32,000 nucleotides of DNA from Acinetobacter wanghuae (GTDB lineage: Bacteria > Pseudomonadota > Gammaproteobacteria > Pseudomonadales > Moraxellaceae): contig NZ_CP045650.1 in the NCBI RefSeq assembly GCF_009557235.1, positions 1,740,001 to 1,772,000 of the forward strand, given 5' to 3'. Made by a program: the position numbers and the translations under genes. Shown piece by piece: positions 286-17,590 of the stretch; position 1 is the first letter of the stretch; the number at the start of each line of letters is the position of its first letter. Under the pieces are notes generated by a model that had not been told where the DNA came from, did not search any database, and was given only the letters and a program-made list of their open reading frames with translations.

Positions 286-368
286 CACATAAGATAAATA
301 GAATCACGCTTTATTGATCATTAAAATCAAATGCATCCATTCTAATGACACTATTAGGTCGATTTGTT

Positions 369-767
369 ATGCGTCAATTTAGCCTTGTTTTGGGTCTCTC
401 TCTTGTTTCCACTATTTGCTTTGCCAATAATCCTTTAAGTGTGCACGTTTTAAATCAAGATAAAGGTGTGCCTGCGACCAATATGTCTGTGATTTTAGAA
501 GCTCAAAATGGCGATACTTGGGTGAAGTTAAATGAAGCTAAGACCAATAAAGAGGGTCGTATTCCTGAGTTTTACCCGAAAGACACCAAGCTACAAAAAG
601 GCGTGTATAAAGTCACTTTTAAAACAGCGGATTGGTTTAAGAAAAATAATAAAAAGACGTTCTTCCCAGAAGTGCCGGTTATTTTTGTCGTGGATGGTCG
701 CTTGGAACATTATCATATTCCGTTATTGTTAAGTGCTTATGGGTATTCAACCTATCGGGGGAATTGA
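369..767 (+). CDS. hiuH: Transthyretin-like 5-hydroxyisourate hydrolase, periplasmic form
   Basis: Small transthyretin-fold sequence (VHVLN..G.PA..., HYHIPLLLS.YGYSTYRG-x C-terminus) with an N-terminal signal peptide (MRQFSLVLGLSLVSTICFA/NN). An alternative start lies at 345. The C-terminal tetrapeptide is YRGN, not the usual YRGS. Confidence 0.8.
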   Translation: MRQFSLVLGLSLVSTICFANNPLSVHVLNQDKGVPATNMSVILEAQNGDTWVKLNEAKTNKEGRIPEFYPKDTKLQKGVYKVTFKTADWFKKNNKKTFFPEVPVIFVVDGRLEHYHIPLLLSAYGYSTYRGN

Positions 768-898
768 TCTTCTAAAGCTTAAATTCTTCCTCTTAATATT
801 CCAAGATAAGTATGTAACAAAAATATTTATTAACACATAGAGTTTTAATTTTTTTTACAATAAAATCTTTATAATTAAAGATTAATCGAAAAATAATT

Positions 899-2134
899 AT
901 GAAATTAGAGTTAACGTTGTATATACTTGTAATTTTTCTGATTTTCTATTTTTCAGACACAACAGATTTCAAAGTATTTAAAGATGAAAGTTCCTCAAAA
1001 TATAATGTAGAAATAATAGATAATACCGAAATAACTTATAATAAAAATTGTGAAAAAAATTTCTATAAAAACACACCACCTTATACCCACTCAAAACCAC
1101 ATAGAAAGTATACATATCCCTTATGTTTTACAGACTATAATGTAATGTATTCAGGCATAACAAAAACACCATTATGGACTAGTCAACACTTGAATACAAA
1201 AAAAATACTTTCAAGTCCGAAAGAAAAAATTGATTTCCACCACGAAAGAAGAATACCAATTAGATATCAACCTATTGAAGAAAAATATGATGAAAATGAT
1301 ATAAATTATATTTACAAACCGTGGCAACTATCACCTTATGTTGAAATGTCAAATGAATTTTCAAACTATGAAAGCCACTCCTTAGCTAATATTAGCCCAG
1401 CTTACAATCCATCTAAGATATATAATTTAGAACAAATCATAAGAGACATTGCTTTAAAAAATGATTTAGATATCTATATTATCACCGGAAGTATTTATAG
1501 CAAATCTGAGGTTAAATATTTAAAGAATAATATACTTATACCAGACCATTTATTCAAAGCTATATATATACCTACCATCGGATTAAATAGTGCATATTAT
1601 ATTAGCAATGATGCGCAACAAATAGTCAAAGTTGTTAGTCTTTGTTATTTGGAGGAAATTACAAGTATAAATTTATTCCCAACATTAAAACTAATAGATA
1701 AGAAAAAAGTTTATAATCTACCTACAAGTAATTATATAGATATAAAAGATCTTCAAAAAATATTAAAGATTGATAATGATATAGATTGCTCTAAGAATAT
1801 TTCCACTCAAGAACTCCAAAAAAATAGAAATTTTTTTGGAAAAAATATTGTGTGTTATGGGAAATATTGTGAAGAGGAAGAAAATTTATATAAAAATAAT
1901 TATAGTTTAAGCGATGACTATGAAGGCCCCTGTAATCATATGGAATGCCTAGAAGGTGAAAACATAATTTGTAATCCTGAAAAATGTAGAACGCTTATTA
2001 CTAAAAAAATCATTCCAATCGAATCTTGTAAAGAAATTGGAAATAGAAGAACTTTAGGATTTCCGTATGGAGTTTACAACTTGAGTTGTTTTGATAAAAA
2101 CAATGAACTTATCTACGAAATAGATATAGACTAA
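899..2134 (+). CDS. Membrane-anchored homologue of the DNA/RNA non-specific endonuclease family (Serratia nuclease/NucA/EndoG type). It has a degenerate active site and a Cys-rich C-terminal extension.
   Basis: N-terminal hydrophobic helix LTLYILVIFLIFYF. By-eye family blocks are TKTPLWTSQHL, ANISPA...YNLEQ, IYIITGSIY and ILIPDHLFKAIY. KPWQ sits where the family has DRGH. Nine Cys occur in the last ~115 aa. G+C is about 18-25% in hand-counted 60-nt lines. Confidence 0.6.
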   Translation: MKLELTLYILVIFLIFYFSDTTDFKVFKDESSSKYNVEIIDNTEITYNKNCEKNFYKNTPPYTHSKPHRKYTYPLCFTDYNVMYSGITKTPLWTSQHLNTKKILSSPKEKIDFHHERRIPIRYQPIEEKYDENDINYIYKPWQLSPYVEMSNEFSNYESHSLANISPAYNPSKIYNLEQIIRDIALKNDLDIYIITGSIYSKSEVKYLKNNILIPDHLFKAIYIPTIGLNSAYYISNDAQQIVKVVSLCYLEEITSINLFPTLKLIDKKKVYNLPTSNYIDIKDLQKILKIDNDIDCSKNISTQELQKNRNFFGKNIVCYGKYCEEEENLYKNNYSLSDDYEGPCNHMECLEGENIICNPEKCRTLITKKIIPIESCKEIGNRRTLGFPYGVYNLSCFDKNNELIYEIDID

Positions 2135-2184
2135 TAATAGGTTTGATACATACAGATCGAAAATCATTTAATAAAAAGATTAGT

Positions 2185-2210
2185 AAAACCCATACCTAAG
2201 TATGGGTTTT
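2185..2210. terminator. Bidirectional intrinsic terminator between convergent genes
   Basis: aaaacccata/tatgggtttt 10-bp stem with a 6-nt loop. The A-run and T-run arms give a U-tract on either strand. Confidence 0.75.
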
Positions 2211-2235
2211 ACATGGTTTTTATTGCTTATGCAAA

Positions 2236-3939
2236 TTAAGCGTTAAACCACTTCTCTGCTTTCGCTTGATCTTCAACTTTCAATTCAACTTCAGGCAATA
2301 CAACACCATTGGCTTGAACCTCAAATTGCATAAACTCATCACGACGGAAGGCATAAACAGTATATGTGCCTTCTTGTTTTGAGTATTTCTCAACAAGTTT
2401 CGTGGTTGCTTTTAAACCATCAATCGCAATAATCACATCATTCGCAGACAGACCTGCTTTCGCAGCAGCACCATCACGACGTGCTGACTGAATCAACACA
2501 CCTTCAGGTTTATCAACCAGTTTTACCCCCAAAGGCAATGACTTGTCATTTTTAAGCGTATAGCTCAAACCAAACTCAGGGAACAATTGATCGAGCGGAA
2601 GCTCATCGGTGGTATTAATCAAATGATTAATTTGCTCCGACCAATCATCACCTGTCAGTTCTTTGCACAACTCATAAATGGTTCGTTCATTCACTTGAAT
2701 GCCATTTTGCGCGTTTTCATACAAACGGCGCATTAAAGCATCAAGGCTAGAGCCACGTAAACGCAAACCTAAGTCTAAGCAAAGCGCCACTAAACAACCT
2801 TTATTGTAGTAGCTTGTACCTGCATTATTTGAGTTTTCATCTTGGCGATAGAACTTCACCCAAGCATCAAAACTTGATTCAGACACGCTTTGTACAAAAC
2901 GCCCTGGATTTTGCAAATAACGATCAATTTGCGCTTTGAGCAAGCTGATATATGAGTCTTGATTAATCACGCCACTACGCAGCAAAATTAAATCGTCGTA
3001 ATACGAAGTAAAGCCTTCAAAGATCCACAGCAAAGATGTGTAGCCTTCGCGGTTTAAATCATAATTAGCAAAGTTTTCCGGACGAATAAATTTCACTAAC
3101 CAAGAATGGAAATATTCGTGACTGCATAAACCTAAGAAACGTTGATAATCTTTTGACGGTTCAACAGGCTCATTCGCCTTAGGCAAATCATCACGCGGTG
3201 AAATCAAACTGGTTGAATTTGGATGTTCTAATCCCCCATAGCTATTGCCAGTTGCCATGGTCATAAAAGTATAGTTTTTAAATGGTGCTGAACCAAACAT
3301 TGAAATTTCAGTTGCACAGATCTTTTCAATGTCTTGTTGCATGCGCGCAGCATTCATTTGATGTTTACCCGACACCACAAACTCATGCGCAATGCCATTC
3401 GCTTCAAAAGTAAAGCGGGTTTGCTCCGCCAATTCAAATGGCGCATCAATGAGTTCGGCATAATTTGCAGCTTTGAGCGTATAACGCCCTTTAACCAAGC
3501 TTTTTGATGCCATGCCTGTTGCAAGTTGGAAATGCTTCAACTCATCTGGCAAGAATAATTCAAGCTCAATCTCTTTATGTTCTTGACCATCTAAGCCCAA
3601 ACAGACACAAGCAGGATTCACATACAACCGGGTTTCATCGACATATGCACCACGTACAGACAAATCATACGCATATACATCATATTCGACGGTAATCAGC
3701 TCATGATCGGTATTAAATAGACGCCAATGGTTTTTATCAAACTTCTGAATTTTCAGCTGGCGACCATCTTCATCGTAAGCTCGCACAGCTTCAATATGTT
3801 TAGAAAACTCACGAATTAAATAGCTGCCGGGAATCCATGTTGGCAACGACAGCACTTGTGTCGGGTCTGCCAAAAAGCGAACAGTCACGTGAATGAGATG
3901 CTGACGATAATCGTCAAATTCGATTTGATAATGCAACAT
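2236..3939 (-). CDS. M61 family (glycyl aminopeptidase-like) zinc metallopeptidase with a C-terminal PDZ domain
   Basis: HEYFHSW zinc motif in the typical M61 context (GGLEH...HEYFH...EGFTSYY). PDZ-like segment GLSANDVIIAIDGLKA near the C-terminus. Confidence 0.8.
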   Translation of the reverse strand: MLHYQIEFDDYRQHLIHVTVRFLADPTQVLSLPTWIPGSYLIREFSKHIEAVRAYDEDGRQLKIQKFDKNHWRLFNTDHELITVEYDVYAYDLSVRGAYVDETRLYVNPACVCLGLDGQEHKEIELELFLPDELKHFQLATGMASKSLVKGRYTLKAANYAELIDAPFELAEQTRFTFEANGIAHEFVVSGKHQMNAARMQQDIEKICATEISMFGSAPFKNYTFMTMATGNSYGGLEHPNSTSLISPRDDLPKANEPVEPSKDYQRFLGLCSHEYFHSWLVKFIRPENFANYDLNREGYTSLLWIFEGFTSYYDDLILLRSGVINQDSYISLLKAQIDRYLQNPGRFVQSVSESSFDAWVKFYRQDENSNNAGTSYYNKGCLVALCLDLGLRLRGSSLDALMRRLYENAQNGIQVNERTIYELCKELTGDDWSEQINHLINTTDELPLDQLFPEFGLSYTLKNDKSLPLGVKLVDKPEGVLIQSARRDGAAAKAGLSANDVIIAIDGLKATTKLVEKYSKQEGTYTVYAFRRDEFMQFEVQANGVVLPEVELKVEDQAKAEKWFNA

Positions 3940-5612: not shown

Positions 5613-6899
5613 ATGACAGCACATAAAATTGTAATTATTGGTGGTGGTGCAGGTGGTTTAGAACTCGCAACGCAACTGGGCGATACCTTAGGCAAAAGCG
5701 GTAAAGCCAAAATCACGCTCATTGATCAAAAGCTCACCCATATTTGGAAACCGCTACTGCATGAAATTGCTGCTGGTACACTGAACCCTGCCGAAGAAGA
5801 AACCAATTATCTCGCCCACGCTGCCGCCCATCATTACGAATTTGTACTCGGTACATTTACCCAGCTTGATCGACTTGCAAAACAAGCGGTTGTTGAAACG
5901 CAATATTTTTCTAAAAAAAGCCAACCGAAAAAAACGGCTTATATTGACTATGACACGCTTGTACTCGCAATCGGTTCGACTTCGAATGACTTTAACACTG
6001 AAGGTGTCAAAGATTTCTGTCACTTCTTAGACAGCCGAGAACAGGCCGATATTTTCCAACAAGATTTACTGCATTTTTATCTCAATGCTCAGCGTGAAAG
6101 TTCTACGCGTGAACTTAAAATCGCCATTGTGGGTGCAGGTGCAACTGGAGTGGAGCTGGCGGCAGAATTGGTTCAAGCCAAACAAAATTTCTTTAAATAT
6201 GGTTTAAATAAAATTGATCCGAAAAAAGTTAAAATCACCTTAATTGAAGCTGCCCCTCGTATTCTGCCCGCTTTAACACAAAAAACGGTGGATCACACCA
6301 TGAAGCAGTTAGCGCAATTTGGTATTGAAGTATTGACTGAGCATCGTGTTGCCAAAGTCGATGAAGACAAAGTCTATTTTGCCGATGGTTCAAGCTTAGA
6401 TGCTGAAATTAAAGTTTGGGCTGCGGGTATTAAAGCACCTGAAGTGATGGCACAACTTGAAGGCTTAGAAAAAGATAATATTCACCGATTAAAAGTATTC
6501 GCGACTTTGCAAAGTATTTCAGATCCGAATATTTATGCTTTTGGTGATTGCGCCCATTGCCAACCTGTCGCTGATGAACCTGTACTTGCACCACGTGCGC
6601 AAGTGGCAAGCCAACAAGCAAGTTTCTTAGTGGGTGCGCTTAAAGCTCGCATCAATCAAGAATCTTATTTACCGATGTTTAAATTTTCAGACAAAGGCTC
6701 TTTGGTGTCATTAAGTCAGCATAAAGCGGTAGGCGAATTACTCGGTCAGGTCAATGTTCAGGGCTTTGTAGCAAAATCAATGTATGTCTCACTCTATCGT
6801 TTGCATCAAGCTACCATTCATGGTTATACCCAAGCCGGAATTTTGACTGCAAAAGATTTTGTGACCAGAAAAATATCACCCAAAATAAAATTGCATTGA
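5613..6899 (+). CDS. ndh: Type II NADH:quinone oxidoreductase (NDH-2)
   Basis: Two dinucleotide-binding motifs (IIGGGAGG and IVGAGATG). Length and overall pattern fit NDH-2. Confidence 0.85.
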   Translation: MTAHKIVIIGGGAGGLELATQLGDTLGKSGKAKITLIDQKLTHIWKPLLHEIAAGTLNPAEEETNYLAHAAAHHYEFVLGTFTQLDRLAKQAVVETQYFSKKSQPKKTAYIDYDTLVLAIGSTSNDFNTEGVKDFCHFLDSREQADIFQQDLLHFYLNAQRESSTRELKIAIVGAGATGVELAAELVQAKQNFFKYGLNKIDPKKVKITLIEAAPRILPALTQKTVDHTMKQLAQFGIEVLTEHRVAKVDEDKVYFADGSSLDAEIKVWAAGIKAPEVMAQLEGLEKDNIHRLKVFATLQSISDPNIYAFGDCAHCQPVADEPVLAPRAQVASQQASFLVGALKARINQESYLPMFKFSDKGSLVSLSQHKAVGELLGQVNVQGFVAKSMYVSLYRLHQATIHGYTQAGILTAKDFVTRKISPKIKLH

Positions 6900-7036
6900 A
6901 ATTTTAAAATTAGACCTTATTAAAAAAAAAACGTCATTAAACTGATCAAAATTGATTTTTTTTGCTAATTTTAGTCTACAAAAATTGAATTTCACTTTAT
7001 GATGTACCCTTTAAAAAATTTGAATGGATCAATATC

Positions 7037-7519
7037 ATGACTGCTATTGCAAATGACCTTGTGGTTTCTTTCCACTACACGTTGACTAACGCAGAGGGCG
7101 AAACTCTAGACAAATCTCAAGGTGAACCACTTGTGTACTTGCACGGTGCAGGCAATATCATCCCTGGCCTTGAAAATGCATTGCTTGGCAAAACAACAGG
7201 CGATAAATTTACTGTAACTGTTCCTGCTGCTGAAGGTTATGGCGAATACAACCCTGAACTTGTTCAAGAAGTGCCTGCGCAAATGTTCCAAGGCGTAGAT
7301 AACATTGTTGCTGGTATGCAATTCCAAGCACAAACTGATGACGGCGTTCAAATCGTAACGGTTAAATCAGTTGAAGGCGACAACATCATCGTTGATGCTA
7401 ACTTCCCACTTGCTGGTCAAGACTTAACTTTTGACGTTGAAATCGTTGACGTTCGCTCTGCTTCTCAAGAAGAATTAGATCACGGTCACGTACACGGTGC
7501 AGGTGGTCACCACCACTAA
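7037..7519 (+). CDS. slyD: FKBP-type peptidyl-prolyl cis-trans isomerase SlyD
   Basis: FKBP core with an inserted-flap region and a short His-rich tail (HGHVHGAGGHHH). Confidence 0.85.
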   Translation: MTAIANDLVVSFHYTLTNAEGETLDKSQGEPLVYLHGAGNIIPGLENALLGKTTGDKFTVTVPAAEGYGEYNPELVQEVPAQMFQGVDNIVAGMQFQAQTDDGVQIVTVKSVEGDNIIVDANFPLAGQDLTFDVEIVDVRSASQEELDHGHVHGAGGHHH

Positions 7520-7584: not shown

Positions 7585-8601
7585 ATGAAAATAACAAACG
7601 TCATAATTGCCTCTGCCACTTGTCTTTTTAGCCCCCTACTCATTGCCGATTGTCGCGTATCGTCTCCTGCATGGACCCAACAGTTTAATCAAGTCTATCA
7701 GGCAGATGAGTTTTATATTTACTATACCAATCGCACTAACTCTAAAGACCGAGTCCCGCAGCAGGACATAAACAAAAACAATATTCCAGACTATGTTGAA
7801 GATGTTGCACGTCAAGCACAAGCAAGCCGAGACATGTTTGAAGTCGCAAAGTTACAACATCCTTTACATTCGCCTCGTTATAAAAATAAAGCTCAAGCCA
7901 TTGCGGTTTTTATTAAAGATATGAAAGGCAATGGTGTTGCTTATGAGGTAGTAAGCCGCCATCCATCTGTATCAACTCAAACACCTATGCCTTGCTCCTT
8001 GGTAATCAATATTTCTAATCGTTTAACAGATTTTCCGGGCAATTATTGGACCACAGTCACTCATGAATTATTTCATTTATATCAATACGGCTATAGCCAA
8101 TTTAAAAATAGTTGGTATTTAGAAAGCTTAGCCAATTGGTCTGAGCGTGCGCTTAGAATTGATATCAATCAACAAACCAAAAACTTAAAAGCATTACCAC
8201 AAAACGTCAAGGCACTTGAACAAGAAATTTTTAAAGCAAGCTACAACCCATTATGGCGACGTTATTTTTATATTCAGCCGAATGACGTACTTAACGTTCC
8301 AAAACAACTACAACTTAAAACCTATATCGATGGCAGCCCGATTTTTAAAGATCATGTATGGTATGGCACGCGTTTTGTAAGAAATTTTTTGGTCGACTTA
8401 TCTGCAGCTTCTTATCAAACTTCCGAACAATACCAATGGCCAAAGTACAATTGGAAAGAAGCCGATCAAAGACGTACGGAATTCAATTGTACAATTTTCA
8501 CTGTTTATCAAAAGCAATTGAAAAAACAAAAAAAACTCACCAAAGAGGCACAATTTTTAGCAAGTTTTCCACTCTCTTCAAACTCACCTCAATGCAAATA
8601 A
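7585..8601 (+). CDS. Secreted hypothetical protein with a gluzincin-like HExxH...E motif (putative zinc metalloprotease)
   Basis: Signal peptide MKITNVIIASATCLFSPLLIA. TVTHELFHLYQYGYSQFKNSWYLESLANW contains HExxH plus a Glu about 18 residues later. GGAG lies 8 nt upstream of ATG 7585. The 7552 start in the ORF track falls inside the slyD terminator. Confidence 0.55.
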   Translation: MKITNVIIASATCLFSPLLIADCRVSSPAWTQQFNQVYQADEFYIYYTNRTNSKDRVPQQDINKNNIPDYVEDVARQAQASRDMFEVAKLQHPLHSPRYKNKAQAIAVFIKDMKGNGVAYEVVSRHPSVSTQTPMPCSLVINISNRLTDFPGNYWTTVTHELFHLYQYGYSQFKNSWYLESLANWSERALRIDINQQTKNLKALPQNVKALEQEIFKASYNPLWRRYFYIQPNDVLNVPKQLQLKTYIDGSPIFKDHVWYGTRFVRNFLVDLSAASYQTSEQYQWPKYNWKEADQRRTEFNCTIFTVYQKQLKKQKKLTKEAQFLASFPLSSNSPQCK

Positions 8602-8628
8602 AAAAGCAGGACATTTGCCCTGCTCTAT
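8597..8628. terminator. Hairpin terminator between convergent genes; the U-tract is best on the minus strand
   Basis: agcagg/cctgct stem with an 8-nt loop. On the minus strand it is followed by TTTTTATTT. Confidence 0.55.
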
Positions 8629-8646
8629 TTCAAAACATCACGCTGA

Positions 8647-9417
8647 TTAACGTTGATTATAAATCGCTTGAGCAGCAGGTAAGTTTTTACGCATGGCTTC
8701 AATACGTTGGCTATTTGATGGATGCGTCGACAAGAACGATGAACCACCTGAACCTGACAATTTATTCATTTTTTCCCATAAGGTAATCGCCGCTTGTGGG
8801 TTATAACCTGCACGCGCCATAAGCATTAAACCGCCTTGATCGGCACGGCTCTCAAGATTACGTGAGTAAGGCAGACCAATACCGATTTGACTACCCAATT
8901 GTGCTGCCGCTGTTGCACCTTGACCCGCACCTGCCGCACTTAAGCCAATACCAATCGCAAGATCCGTTAACGCCTGCGCACCCACTTTTTGTTTTGAGTG
9001 TTCTTCAAGGGCATGTACCATTTCATGTCCCATCACTGCTGCAATTTCTGCATCGGTGAGGTTGAGTTTATTGACAATACCTGTATATACAACCACTTTA
9101 CCGCCTGGTGCAACATAAGCATTCACTTGATCTGACTTCAATACAGCCAGCTGCCACGCAAATTTAGTACCTGTTTGGTTCATCTGATCGGCATAGGGGC
9201 GTAGCTTGTTAAATACTGCATTAACACGCTGATACGTCGCAGATGAAGTATCTAAGGTTTTATTACTACTTGCTTCCTGTACGGTTTTATTAAAGCCCTG
9301 TGCAGCGACATTGTTTAAAGTTGCGGTATCTGCACCTGCAATATCTGCAATGGTGGTACATCCTGATAGGGTCACTGTAGCGGCAGTCGCCATACATAAC
9401 ATCAATTTATTGTTCAT
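8647..9417 (-). CDS. loiP: M48 family zinc metalloprotease lipoprotein (LoiP/YggG-like), copy A
   Basis: Lipobox LSGC, HEMVHALEEH zinc motif, and conserved LPYSRNLESRAD and STHPS blocks. About 255 aa, like E. coli LoiP. Confidence 0.75.
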   Translation of the reverse strand: MNNKLMLCMATAATVTLSGCTTIADIAGADTATLNNVAAQGFNKTVQEASSNKTLDTSSATYQRVNAVFNKLRPYADQMNQTGTKFAWQLAVLKSDQVNAYVAPGGKVVVYTGIVNKLNLTDAEIAAVMGHEMVHALEEHSKQKVGAQALTDLAIGIGLSAAGAGQGATAAAQLGSQIGIGLPYSRNLESRADQGGLMLMARAGYNPQAAITLWEKMNKLSGSGGSSFLSTHPSNSQRIEAMRKNLPAAQAIYNQR

Positions 9418-9528
9418 TATCTATTTCTCCGCCCAAGTTTTTAGGCATATCAATTCACTAAATTATAAATTAAAAAGCAAGCATCTATACATGCTTAATC
9501 GCTGCATCTTGTTATTATTTATGTAAAT

Positions 9529-9837
9529 TTAAGCCATGAATTGAATCAATAACCAATAAAGCAAGCACAGAATATTCAGTACCAAATAAAAATGAGCCAC
9601 AGGTTCTATTTTTTGTTCAAGCGTGATGCTATTTCGTTTTACAAATAAAATGGCATTTTGAATGAGAATTAAAGGGACTAGTACACAAGCAACCGCGACG
9701 CTTAAACCGACTAAGGCATGATAAATCAGGTCAGGATTTTGGGTTTGGGCACGAATGATCAACATCGCAATGGTAGGCGCGCCACCCATTGCAAAGAGTA
9801 AGGAGTAGAACATCGTTCCTGAAATATTTTTCTGCAT
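9529..9837 (-). CDS. Small integral membrane protein (about 3 predicted TM helices), hypothetical
   Basis: The ORF lies between the two M48 genes on the same strand. Hydrophobic segments are FYSLLFAMGGAPTIAMLII, LVGLSVAVACVLVPLILI and FYLVLNILCLLYWLLI. Confidence 0.5.
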   Translation of the reverse strand: MQKNISGTMFYSLLFAMGGAPTIAMLIIRAQTQNPDLIYHALVGLSVAVACVLVPLILIQNAILFVKRNSITLEQKIEPVAHFYLVLNILCLLYWLLIQFMA

Positions 9838-9937
9838 CCTGCAGGCTCTTGATCTTTTATATTGTTTTTATTCTAACAAGCACCATGCAATTGCATAGTG
9901 CTGTGTTGTGCAACTTTAGTCGTGAGCCATTCAGCTA

Positions 9938-10717
9938 TTAACGCGCTTGGTATAATTTTTTAGCTTCAGGCATCATAGCTTGCAATGCGGCAATACGATC
10001 ATTATTACTCGGATGCGTTGACATAAATTTCACAATGGCATTATTACCACGTGAATCATTCGCATTCATTTTTTTCCATAAGGTGACAGCCGCTTCAGGG
10101 TTATAACCTGCTTTTGCCATCAGCATTAAACCGCCTTTATCAGCACGGCTTTCTAAATTACGCGAATACGGCAATCCAACCCCAAATTTACTACCCATAT
10201 CAATTGCTAAGGCACCGTAGCCGCCTAATGATGCACCCGCATATTGCTTCCCTACATTCACCGCTAAATCGGTAATCATTTGTGAACCAATTTTGCTTTT
10301 AGAATGCTCTTCTAAAGCATGAACCATTTCATGCCCCATGATCGCAGCCACTTCATCGTCAGTCAATTTTAAGGTTTCTACTATACCCGTATAGAACACT
10401 ACTTTGCCGCCCGGTGCAACGTAGGCGTTAATTTCATTGGATTTTAATACCGCCACTTGCCATTCAAATTTATGCCCTGTTTGATTGAGTTCATCGGCGT
10501 GATTTTTCATTTTTAAAAATACGCGATTGACTTTTTTATAGGTGGCAGATGTTGTATCTAATACTTTTTTGGTTTTCGCTTCATTTAACATTTGATTGTA
10601 GGTTTGCGTAGCACTCATATTTAATGATGCCGTATCTGCCCCTGAAAATTCCGCAATGGTTGCACATCCTGACAAACTCAACGCAAATCCTGCTGTCATC
10701 GCTATTTTCTTATACAT
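9938..10717 (-). CDS. M48 family zinc metalloprotease lipoprotein (LoiP/YggG-like), copy B
   Basis: Paralogue of copy A over its full length, with lipobox LSGC and an identical HEMVHALEEHSK block. The start is set at MYKKIAM (10717), which gives a normal lipoprotein signal peptide. Confidence 0.75.
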   Translation of the reverse strand: MYKKIAMTAGFALSLSGCATIAEFSGADTASLNMSATQTYNQMLNEAKTKKVLDTTSATYKKVNRVFLKMKNHADELNQTGHKFEWQVAVLKSNEINAYVAPGGKVVFYTGIVETLKLTDDEVAAIMGHEMVHALEEHSKSKIGSQMITDLAVNVGKQYAGASLGGYGALAIDMGSKFGVGLPYSRNLESRADKGGLMLMAKAGYNPEAAVTLWKKMNANDSRGNNAIVKFMSTHPSNNDRIAALQAMMPEAKKLYQAR

Positions 10718-10814
10718 ACCCCGATCCACCCTATTATTTAAATAAAAAACGCAATATAACAAAATAAAAAGTTATATCAATAGCATAAATTTACCAAATG
10801 TTATATTTAGGCAT

Positions 10815-15773: not shown

Positions 15774-16069
15774 TTGAAATGAGCACCTTCATTGCGATTT
15801 TATGTATCGCAGCGACCACCTATTTAACTCGAATTTTGGGCTATATCTTACTAAAAAATAAAACGCTGACGACACGACAACGTCAAATTTTGGAAGTCGT
15901 TCCCGGCTGTGTGTTAATTTCCGTAATCGCGCCCTATTTTGTACATGATAATCCTGCGGATCTGATTGCACTGGCATTGACATTATTTGCCGCAAGTCGC
16001 TTCGGCTTACTGCCGACTGTTGCAATCAGCATGGCATCAGCCGCGATTTTAAGATGGGTCTTGGTCTAA
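15770..16069 (+). CDS. azlD: AzlD family branched-chain amino acid transport protein
   Basis: 99-aa hydrophobic protein, translationally coupled to azlC. Confidence 0.75.
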   Translation: MIEMSTFIAILCIAATTYLTRILGYILLKNKTLTTRQRQILEVVPGCVLISVIAPYFVHDNPADLIALALTLFAASRFGLLPTVAISMASAAILRWVLV

Positions 16070-16102
16070 AAAAGCTAAAAAAGCTAAAAAAGCTAAAAAA
16101 GA
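16067..16102. repeat. 9-bp tandem repeat TAAAAAAGC: 3 perfect copies plus 1 copy matching 8/9
   Basis: Read directly from the sequence. The first unit starts with the azlD TAA stop codon. The array runs into the terminator hairpin. Confidence 0.9.
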
Positions 16103-16131
16103 AAGGCATGATGATTATGCCTTTTCTTTTT
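16102..16131. terminator. Bidirectional terminator between azlD and the convergent 100-aa gene
   Basis: aaaggcat/atgccttt 8-bp stem with a 7-nt loop. It is T-rich downstream and A-rich upstream. Confidence 0.75.
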
Positions 16132-16143
16132 CATAAAATTAAA

Positions 16144-16446
16144 TTACTTTTTTCCATCTACCGCTTGTGCAATCAACGCTACAAGCTCTGCATTTTGTAA
16201 TTCGACTTGTTGCAACTTCTGCGTAGTTTGATCCAACACTTCTTGCTGAACATGCATTTTTTTAGCTAAATCTTGCATAATTTCTAAGGTCTTTTTTAAG
16301 TTTTCCTCAAGATTCAGTACATTTTTTTCAAGCTGCTGAATTTTGATGGTATCAAACTGTTCACCCTCACCTTTAAACTGCAACCAAATCAGAAAAATCA
16401 CAGCAGCTGCTAATAAAAAGATGAATCCCCACATCACAATAAGCAT
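16144..16446 (-). CDS. Hypothetical single-pass membrane protein with a coiled-coil tail
   Basis: N-terminal TM helix (WGFIFLLAAAVIFLIWL) followed by a Q/E/L/K-rich heptad-like sequence. Confidence 0.5.
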   Translation of the reverse strand: MLIVMWGFIFLLAAAVIFLIWLQFKGEGEQFDTIKIQQLEKNVLNLEENLKKTLEIMQDLAKKMHVQQEVLDQTTQKLQQVELQNAELVALIAQAVDGKK

Positions 16447-16617
16447 AATTACTTTACTCTTTTCTTATTTATGCCAACATCTTACCTGAAAGCCCAACAC
16501 AATAAAGTGAAAAACATGCAAATGCATTTCCGATGCCTATAAGAAACATTGCATTGGATACCAAGCTTTCATATCTCAAGATATCTTCATCTGGATATAG
16601 CGATATCTTGTTAAATA

Positions 16618-17590
16618 ACCCGAATCGCGGATAAGAAATTAACTTGAAAAATAGAAGGACTAGAGCCATCAGTTGAGTTACCACACAAAACTTAAAACTC
16701 TAGTCCCGATGTTTAATAGTACCGAATTATTTTGCTTAATTGATGATTTCTTTCTTAAATTTGAAGCAACCTACTGGAATTTTCTTAAGCAAAGTAATCG
16801 TTCCTTAAGAATCAGAACTGCTCATTTAACCATTTCAGAAATCTGTTTTATCGTTATTTGGTACAAATGTTCTCATTTCAATAATTTCAAAGCATTTTTC
16901 ATTTGGTTAAAAGAAGATAAAAACCATTTATTTAAGTATTTGCCTTGCTATCAAAGGATGATTCATCTGATCAATATGCACCAATTGGCTCTACACGCTT
17001 TACATGTGGTGCTGATGAAAGACCAAGGTACACAATATTTATGGATTGATTCAACAACTCTGCCAGTTTGTAAAAATCAACGTATTCAACGCCATAAATC
17101 TTTAGCTAAAATTGCATCTCGTGGTAAAAGTTCAATGGGCTGGTTTTATGGCTGTAAATTGCACATTGCAATGAACCAATTTGGTGAAATTGCTTGTTCT
17201 GCTTTATCGAATGGACATGTTGCTGACATAAAAATGGTTGAGAGACTCGTTAAAGAGGTGGAAGCAAAGTTGTATGGAGATCGTGGCTATATTAGTCAAG
17301 AACTGAAGATTAGATTAAAAGAGCAAGGCATTGATTTAATTACCTATCATCGAAAAAATATGCAGGCTACACAACTTTCTGAGTCAGATAAATATCACTT
17401 AAAACAGCGTAATAAGATAGAGACTTTATTCAGTTTATTGAAAGGTCAGTACAATTTAGTGACAAGCAAAGCACGTAGTGTTCATGGATTTCTAGGAGGG
17501 ATTTACGCGTCCTTGTGTGCATATCAACTGATCCATAAAAATAAGCCAACAATTCAAATTATGGAGTCATCGGCTTAAACAGGATTCGGA
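16618..17590 (+). mobile_element. Complete IS982-family insertion sequence, about 973 bp, with imperfect terminal inverted repeats and a 7-bp target-site duplication
   Basis: IRL is acccgaatcgcggataag (16618-16635). The reverse complement of IRR is tccgaatcctgtttaag (17574-17590). About 12 of 18 positions match, with one gap. TTAAATA occurs directly outside both ends (16611-16617 and 17591-17597). There is a single DDE transposase ORF. The boundaries are uncertain by 1-2 nt. Confidence 0.8.
16709..17578 (+). CDS. IS982-family DDE transposase
   Basis: N-terminal ELFCLIDDFF motif, then WIDSTTLPVC...GCKLH...YGDRGYIS...RNKIETLFS blocks typical of IS982/IS4-type DDE transposases. 289 aa from ATG 16709. 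Confidence 0.85.
   Translation: MFNSTELFCLIDDFFLKFEATYWNFLKQSNRSLRIRTAHLTISEICFIVIWYKCSHFNNFKAFFIWLKEDKNHLFKYLPCYQRMIHLINMHQLALHALHVVLMKDQGTQYLWIDSTTLPVCKNQRIQRHKSLAKIASRGKSSMGWFYGCKLHIAMNQFGEIACSALSNGHVADIKMVERLVKEVEAKLYGDRGYISQELKIRLKEQGIDLITYHRKNMQATQLSESDKYHLKQRNKIETLFSLLKGQYNLVTSKARSVHGFLGGIYASLCAYQLIHKNKPTIQIMESSA

Follow-up and report, generated by a model that had tools for sequence, protein, structure and literature searches.

How can a gene be kept by selection when its product has the fold of a nuclease and lacks the histidine on which cleavage depends? The question is raised by a protein of 411 amino acids (aa) from Acinetobacter wanghuae, encoded between a hiuH-like gene and an M61 peptidase gene in the 32-kb stretch of DNA analysed here (the window). 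Databases label the protein either "hypothetical protein" or "DNA/RNA non-specific endonuclease". We suggest that it is an acquired, periplasm-facing, non-catalytic pseudo-nuclease which is selected as a binder and whose likeliest ligand would be nucleic acid; to this reading as a whole we give a probability of about 40%. The gene and the parts of its product are as follows:

899..2134, + strand: coding sequence of the 411-aa nuclease-like protein (WP_153371760.1 / QGA11367.1, Acinetobacter wanghuae)
899..958, + strand: predicted hydrophobic signal-anchor, aa 1-20 (MKLELTLYILVIFLIFYFSD); top hydropathy window, helix in the structural model
1043..1786, + strand: core with Endonuclease_NS fold, aa 49-296, seen by Pfam, AlphaFold2 (AF2) and Foldseek; contains conserved Cys51, Cys76 and Cys249, with Cys297 just beyond its end
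1316..1327, + strand: degenerate motif KPWQ, aa 140-143, in the place of DRGH; Gln143 at the position of the general-base His
1385..1402, + strand: ANISPA, aa 163-168; metal-ligand Asn164 kept, Gln168 replaced by Ala
1430..1444, + strand: Glu178...Arg182 of the finger helix, kept; by position Serratia E127/R131 and EndA E205/R209
1787..2131, + strand: Cys-rich tail, aa 297-411; six conserved Cys, common only to this protein and its metagenomic relative P0046

Nuclease fold and degenerate active site

The Pfam profile Endonuclease_NS (PF01223) matches aa 72-242 with an E-value of 6.7e-14 and a score of 52.5 bits, the gathering threshold being 23, and no further Pfam domain is found in the 411-aa protein. 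Among structures in the PDB, phmmer returns EXOG (E 1e-4), and the profile of A2 retrieves EndoG, EXOG and NucA at E ~1e-37. The AF2 model, based on an alignment of 95 sequences, has a predicted local distance difference test score (pLDDT) above 90 over residues ~50-310 and contains the strand-strand-helix metal finger (140-143, 165-168 and 171-188). Foldseek superposes it on 1smn, 1qae and 1zm8 (Serratia nuclease, NucA) with template modelling (TM) scores of 0.73-0.74 on the target; EXOG and EndoG/CPS-6 also match, with E ~1e-11 to Serratia nuclease, NucA, EndoG and EXOG, and so does the catalytically inert nuclease-like domain of autotaxin/ENPP. The body of the protein keeps the beta-beta-alpha-metal nuclease fold. 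The original prediction had proposed a Serratia-nuclease/NucA-type protein from sequence blocks picked out by eye; all of these blocks are present, and both the profile score and the structural superposition bear the proposal out.

The active site is another matter. In every multiple alignment KPWQ, modelled as a beta-strand, stands in the column of DRGH, and it faces SRGH of EXOG; ANISPA is aligned with SNIVPQ. The residue at the catalytic column is therefore Gln143, as had been read from the sequence alone, and the early reading of the N..PQ block, with Ala for Gln and the metal-ligand Asn kept, proved equally accurate. We scored conservation against the 83 His-bearing members of the 95-sequence alignment (in a larger set, the His is present in 151 of 187 sequences). 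At columns conserved to 81-100% the protein carries the changes R109E, R124Q, D129K, D140K, R141P, G142W, H143Q, F160H, Q168A and W174I, the columns of R109 and Gln168 being each 99% conserved. It retains N164, N170, E178, R182, K220, N237 and the structural Cys51 and Cys76; the columns of Asn164 and Glu178 are 100% and 99% conserved, respectively.

Judged by spacing (32-34 residues ahead of the His, 4 past the Glu) and not by superposition, R109, R141, N164, E178 and R182 would correspond to R57, R87, N119, E127 and R131 of Serratia nuclease, and R109, N164, E178 and R182 to R127, N191, E205 and R209 of EndA. By the same spacing-based equivalence, presumed columns for DNA-contacting Arg are changed to Glu at 109 and to Pro at 141, and R182 is kept. 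In EndA, the H160A/G and N191A variants are inactive, catalysis depends critically on E205, and DNA is bound through R127/K128 and R209/K210 (PMC3074123). Because the general-base His, the rest of DRGH, Gln168 and two to three equivalents of phosphate-contacting Arg are gone, hydrolysis of nucleic acids by the mechanism of the family has almost certainly been lost. It is the general-base His that defines active PF01223 nucleases, and because the sequence lacks it, the protein should not be annotated as an endonuclease.

Relatives and the kup locus

When 1.84 billion representatives were searched exhaustively with phmmer, 789 relatives came to light. Only one of them exceeds 41% identity, the metagenomic protein P0046 (390 aa, 44-45% identical), which matches residues 34-409 and carries MRWN and NVTPVK in the places of the two motifs. 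A word-indexed protein search missed this relative (45% identical), and the A. wanghuae genome itself turned up neither in the scan of genome contigs nor in a contig look-up with the exact protein; absences from these searches therefore weigh little. The gene of P0046 is solitary, with 24% G+C inside flanks of 42-44%, and adjoins an HsdM-like gene and an xseBA pair with 84-85% protein-level similarity to copies on Acinetobacter plasmids. This suggests an accessory or mobile setting; its host can be named only as far as these Acinetobacter-like flanking genes allow.

Two further forms without the His are IRWR of A. johnsonii (WP_325087731.1, from a cluster of 147 sequences) and YLWQ of A. equi (ALH94951.1). 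Trp at the 99%-conserved Gly is found in seven of the eight His-less sequences, a set made up of WP_153371760.1 and seven relatives, but never in a His-bearing member. In a neighbour-joining tree the His-less set lies beside the clade of Acinetobacter membrane-anchored DRGH nucleases, and WP_153371760.1 and P0046 form a long-branched pair. As judged from these sequences, KPWQ, MRWN, IRWR and YLWQ mark a small, Acinetobacter-only set of His-less proteins derived from the anchored DRGH nuclease of the genus. The protein does not stand alone: it belongs to a small clade of His-less paralogues.

The DRGH form itself is genus-wide, with 2,608 matches at E <= 1e-30 that include A. baumannii, A. baylyi and some A. 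johnsonii (P0296); A. wanghuae does not appear among the 120 matches listed of the 2,608. At the kup locus of A. baumannii, a single membrane-anchored DRGH nuclease is located 3' of kup and 5' of aqpZ and hisF. In A. equi and many genomes of A. johnsonii type, this gene is replaced by a pair of nuclease-family genes (kup-aqpZ cassette loci L082 6440-8960, L092 164-2666, L087 4957-6963 and L090 4836-5939). The first gene of the pair encodes a signal-peptide nuclease of a distant subfamily, with D(R/K)GH and N..PQ intact; the second, 42 nucleotides (nt) 3' of it, encodes the His-less membrane-anchored paralogue. Two lineages of A. johnsonii type still carry, upstream of the pair, a fragment of the native DRGH gene (155-161 aa) cut at the identical point (…DRGHLVYPPKNIL). 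The G+C content of the pair is 30-32%, against 40% for the native fragment and 44% for kup. Because the pair is lower in G+C and the remnant is truncated identically in both lineages, we read the arrangement as a cassette of a secreted nuclease and an apparently dead anchored paralogue which displaced the resident DRGH gene. A chimeric origin of the A. johnsonii IRWR gene was ruled out, its N- and C-terminal parts being equally diverged from the DRGH forms.

Further genes lie next to the cassette. On two metagenomic A. johnsonii-like contigs, a run of tyrosine recombinases (Phage_integrase / Integrase_2) lies 3' of the nuclease pair (L092 4066-8445 and L093 4758-7523), and a third contig (L091 1656-5050) carries genes with MTES_1575, SNase and HTH domains. 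These gene sets look like separate mobile elements beside the cassette.

The substitution pattern was analysed by the Nei-Gojobori method. The ratio of nonsynonymous to synonymous substitution rates (dN/dS) between the window gene and that of P0046 is 0.38, with dS at 1.09 and thus near saturation. Among IRWR genes the ratio is 0.14-0.29 and between IRWR and YLWQ 0.25; the adjacent secreted nuclease, used as a control, gave 0.14-0.30, similar to the IRWR range. The His-less genes are under purifying selection.

Loss of the His is not confined to Acinetobacter. About 10% of the PF01223 representatives near the clade lack it; they belong to other taxa and to unrelated, solitary contexts (P0077, P0102, P0104, P0114, P0138, P0143, P0149, P0156, P0183 and P0194, at loci L094-L098). 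One of them, P0143, adjoins a gene for a DsbA-like thioredoxin and overlaps the start of a 498-aa gene of unknown function. Bacterial pseudo-nucleases of PF01223 seem to be recurrent and undescribed.

Predicted membrane anchor and Cys-rich tail

The highest hydropathy window of the whole protein is formed by aa 1-19, and AF2 models a helix at 2-19 with pLDDT 85-90, in line with the N-terminal hydrophobic anchor of the original prediction. By inspection, the small residue required at -3 of a signal peptidase site is absent (Y-F-S), and relatives have strongly basic N-termini preceding the equivalent helix. Because the hydrophobic helix lies at the extreme N-terminus, a signal peptidase site is missing and the N-termini of relatives are basic, we expect N-in/C-out (type II) anchoring in the inner membrane, with the body of the protein probably in the periplasm. 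The surface exposure once proposed does not follow from this: in Gram-negative bacteria, a protein whose N-terminal anchor is not cleaved off is expected in the inner membrane, facing the periplasm.

Nine Cys are present in the last ~115 aa (297, 319, 324, 345, 350, 358, 363, 377 and 397), as had been counted. Cys297 is found throughout the Acinetobacter clade, Cys319 and Cys324 occur in WP_153371760.1 alone, and the remaining six are conserved with P0046 in the spacing C-x4-C-x7-C-x4-C-x13-C-x19-C; the end of the tail, YGVY…CFD…ELIYE, is conserved between the two proteins as well. The simplest reading is three periplasmic disulfides, although the Cys may instead form a metal-binding cluster. 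The Cys-rich module proposed earlier is upheld, and among the relatives found P0046 alone shares it. Neither tail has a match in Pfam. The exhaustive phmmer search brought no further relative with a Cys tail, and a scan of metagenomic contigs gave only relatives of DRGH type. A word-indexed search with the alignment of the two tails returned nothing, which is weak evidence, as even the source protein was not returned. AF2 is of no use here, with pLDDT 32-71 in the full model and 42.7 for the tail alone; only a beta-rich tendency is visible.

Insertion between hiuH and M61

The gene is set apart from its surroundings by base composition and by the comparison of species. Its edges and neighbours are:

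~775..2184, unstranded: inserted low-GC segment, the island proper; ~1.41 kb, 25.4% G+C (358/1410), one gene
345..767, + strand: left flank, hiuH-like gene of the transthyretin family (Transthyretin/HIUase match, E 3e-37)
2236..3939, - strand: right flank, M61 glycyl aminopeptidase with PDZ domain (M61 match, E 1e-49), convergent with 899..2134
2183..2212, unstranded: bidirectional terminator hairpin with a 13-bp stem, at the right edge of the insertion

The G+C content of the gene is 26.4%, and 19.9% at third codon positions (GC3). The window's 26 other open reading frames (ORFs) with a length of 120 aa or more average 41.2 +/- 3.0% with a minimum of 33.8%, which places the gene ~5 standard deviations below them. 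Sliding G+C is 22-29% over 750-2250 and ~40% on either side. The manual tallies of the original prediction were exact on recount (15/60 at 901-960, 11/60 at 1741-1800 and 23/60 at 2281-2340), and its single 411-aa ORF was likewise found, on the + strand.

We compared the junction with the M61 orthologue and its flanks from 80 other Acinetobacter genomes; the A. wanghuae genome was not among the returned loci. Similarity to these loci ends at ~774, just past the hiuH stop codon, and restarts at ~2185, and none of the 80 has a nuclease-like gene near its M61 orthologue. An equivalent hairpin lies beside M61 in the spacers of other species that were examined, so the terminator is, by sequence comparison, ancestral to the junction. 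Where hiuH and M61 adjoin, the spacer between them ranges from 81 bp to 2.4 kb: those of 81-86 bp (A. johnsonii, A. tandoii and others) hold the terminator hairpin alone, intermediate ones measure ~0.4-0.8 kb, and those of the A. lwoffii group 1.3-2.4 kb. Longer spacers differ in their cargo: a PaaI-like thioesterase of 130 aa, a membrane/coiled-coil protein of 237-250 aa, a protein of 355 aa and an IS630-like transposase are encoded there. At about half of the 80 loci, M61 does not have hiuH as its neighbour. The variable region corresponding to window 768-2235 lies 3' of the M61 orthologue, at locus coordinates ~7700-10500 of loci L001-L069.

Because similarity breaks at ~774 and returns at ~2185, the G+C content is 25.4% and there is one gene only, we regard ~775-2184 as an insertion of a single gene, acquired horizontally, which separates the stop codon of hiuH from hiuH's own terminator. 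An acquired and variably present single-gene island had been postulated at 780-2235. The island is supported by the cross-species comparison and by the contrast of 26% with 41% G+C; the low-GC segment stands, and its limits are refined to ~775-2184. Neither terminal inverted repeats nor a target-site duplication were found at its edges. A plasmid or phage source was considered and set aside, the best matches being only the 33%-identical chromosomal gene of A. baumannii and a generic family of phage nucleases.

As no terminator was detected between hiuH and the island gene, transcription reading through from hiuH would be possible. No recognisable promoter or Shine-Dalgarno sequence was found for the gene. 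A scan with the promoter consensus gave 15 sites against 12.3 expected, and the nearest candidate, 868-897, ends 2 nt 5' of the ATG and is unable to serve that start.

Possible function

We propose that the protein would hold nucleic acid uncut at the periplasmic face of the inner membrane, and that its disulfide-rich C-terminal beta-module might be an added extracytoplasmic binding or stabilising domain. From the sequence we infer the lack of activity, the ligand and the binding role. Nucleic acid is favoured as ligand because Asn and Glu of the metal site and one DNA-contacting Arg persist, the core is basic (isoelectric point 8.6, charge +4, like His-bearing homologues), and His-Me fingers devoid of catalysis, such as Smad MH1 and ENPP NUC, still bind DNA or substrate (PMC5714182). 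Membrane-associated members of the family which act on incoming DNA are also known, namely EndA and NucM of Moraxella (PMC6384898).

Several observations weigh against this proposal. Positional equivalents of the DNA-contacting Arg (R109, R124 and R141) are replaced by Glu109, Gln124 and Pro141, and the IRWR relatives, unlike WP_153371760.1, keep them; because of these losses the affinity for DNA may be low. The subclade with the Cys tail has two known members, and the role we assign to this unmodelled tail without further relatives is guesswork. The topology is predicted from sequence, and the gene shows neither of the expression signals that were sought.

The main rival, which we regard as unlikely, is that the pseudo-nuclease binds a real DRGH nuclease, secreted or resident, and serves to dock it at the membrane, to chaperone it or to inhibit it. 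In that case the window would carry an orphan copy, directed at nucleases of A. wanghuae itself or at foreign ones. The arrangement at the kup locus in A. johnsonii-type genomes and A. equi speaks for such a partnership: the His-less anchored paralogue directly follows a nuclease with an intact motif, both genes are under purifying selection, and the two behave like a lower-GC cassette that left the native gene truncated at one identical point in two lineages. Nucleases of the family are also reported to act as dimers (PMC5137453). However, the nuclease of the pair is from a distant subfamily, and its presence does not imply that the two dimerise by an interface common to paralogues; nor is there a gene for a nuclease partner within the window. 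P0046 is solitary too. A general rule that His-less copies adjoin active nucleases was ruled out, as three independent His-less lineages in other taxa are solitary. Unlikely as well is a wider scheme in which the Trp-substituted, His-less anchored proteins would be a dedicated bacterial class of pseudo-nucleases controlling the fate of DNA at the Acinetobacter inner membrane, either by holding DNA, incoming or extracellular, uncut or by docking or restraining a secreted nuclease. They would have spread as cassettes replacing DRGH genes, and the window gene would be a mobile, orphan and further-derived version with a new disulfide-rich domain.

That the protein might still be an enzyme, in which what is left of the metal site (Asn164, Glu178) works together with a different general base or on a different phosphoester, appears improbable to us. 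The set N164, N170, E178, R182, K220 and N237 is kept, the gene is under purifying selection, and a new His, His160, has appeared four residues before Asn164. Yet the His-less relatives have no conserved His that could stand in for the lost one: at the position of His160, P0046 has Tyr and the IRWR forms have Phe, and His97 and His114 are present in His-bearing members as well. Moreover, a bulky Trp replaces the Gly adjoining the catalytic position, several conserved Arg are lost, and EndA is dead upon replacement of its His by Ala or Gly (PMC3074123). We find it slightly harder still to believe in a functionless relic, a transferred gene in decay whose frame happens to be open, although its extreme G+C content, the lack of a recognisable promoter or ribosome-binding site and its very narrow distribution with long branches would all suit this. 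Decay is difficult to reconcile with 411 intact codons at 26% G+C, where stop codons arise readily, with a dN/dS of 0.38 at near-saturated dS, with a core modelled at high confidence, and with the conservation of structural Cys and of six tail Cys in a 44%-identical homologue from a different genomic context. Least of all do we expect that the junction is a hot spot for defence genes and that this one acts against phages or as a toxin. In other species low-GC genes of several kinds are found there, among them an insertion sequence (IS) and genes whose products have no known function, and nuclease folds are frequent in defence systems; but neither WP_153371760.1 nor P0046 nor the A. johnsonii form P0011 matches PADLOC-DB 2.0 at E <= 0.01, the gene stands alone without a partner, the catalytic residues are absent, and the predicted periplasmic site is far from phage DNA in the cytoplasm.

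Remainder of the window

The rest of the window consists of housekeeping genes and one IS. A DDE transposase (DDE_Tnp_1_3, IS5-like) lies at 16673-17578 between azlC-like and gapA-like genes, preceded by ~900 bp without a long ORF (15774-16672). Two paralogous M48-family peptidases are encoded on one strand at 8647-9417 and 9938-10762, with ~0.5 kb between them. A second short dip in G+C (29%) at 6751-7050 is intergenic, between the genes for a pyridine-nucleotide-disulfide oxidoreductase and an FKBP-type isomerase. At the left edge (1-300), a gene of which the window includes the 3' end only encodes a basic tail rich in Arg and Gly (…PRGRGRGRG) ending at 244; it is followed by a hairpin with a T-run at ~263-290. 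Scans for Rfam families and tRNA were negative there and throughout the window.

Comparison with known systems

The closest His-bearing relatives are the Acinetobacter DRGH nucleases of the QCP18299.1 type (A. baumannii FDB76_18280, at kup-aqpZ-hisF), with ~33% identity over aa 45-316. The N-terminal anchor and the core with Cys51, Cys76, Cys249 and Cys297 are shared. QCP18299.1 has DRGH and N..PQ intact, 40% G+C, a fixed locus and an amphipathic C-terminal helix, whereas WP_153371760.1 has KPWQ, 26% G+C, the hiuH-M61 locus and the Cys-rich tail. A literature search found no characterisation of the DRGH form in Acinetobacter.

Nearer in kind are the IRWR, YLWQ and MRWN proteins, with no His, Trp at the Gly, the Gln of N..PQ lost, an anchor and purifying selection. 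P0046 additionally shares the Cys-rich tail and the solitary low-GC setting; the IRWR and YLWQ proteins differ in their length of 319-321 aa, in the lack of a tail and in the secreted nuclease that is encoded beside them at the kup locus. No papers on the His-less Acinetobacter proteins were found.

EndA of S. pneumoniae, NucM of Moraxella catarrhalis, Serratia Nuc and NucA of Anabaena share the fold, but they are active enzymes with DRGH, and WP_153371760.1 cannot be filed with them because its catalytic His is absent. EndA has an N-terminal membrane-localisation signal, and NucM is partly membrane-associated and comes from Moraxellaceae, as does the host of our protein (PMC3074123, PMC6384898). 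This type of entry nuclease is matched in the predicted anchor only, not in catalysis.

What the protein could mean depends on its binding role. Acinetobacter is naturally transformable, and it is one of the main channels by which resistance genes spread. An anchored copy of the genus's own nuclease that is under selection and apparently dead would be worth testing, because the genus is transformable and membrane-associated members of the family act on incoming DNA in transformable bacteria; the nuclease step of DNA uptake is unknown in most Gram-negative bacteria (PMC6384898). With such a protein, nature may have supplied a tool to separate, at the cell envelope, the binding of DNA from its cutting. 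The protein may also modulate DNA uptake or the turnover of extracellular DNA. If it has no phenotype, it would be one more orphan accessory gene.

An inert PF01223 domain as such is not new: the NUC domain of eukaryotic ENPP1-3/autotaxin has the same fold, is His-less, presumed inert, extracytoplasmic and disulfide-rich (PMC5714182). It matches our model in Foldseek at E ~1e-10 and in a profile search at E 1e-6. In contrast to WP_153371760.1, it is eukaryotic, fused to phosphodiesterase and SMB domains and buttresses the catalytic domain, and it has no bacterial member; the His was lost independently in the two. The 2017 classification of His-Me fingers contains no bacterial His-less group of PF01223 (PMC5714182). 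By analogy, WP_153371760.1 would in principle work most like the inert ENPP NUC or Smad MH1, and if so, His-Me fingers known to be without catalysis, very few so far and represented by these two domains, would gain a bacterial example.

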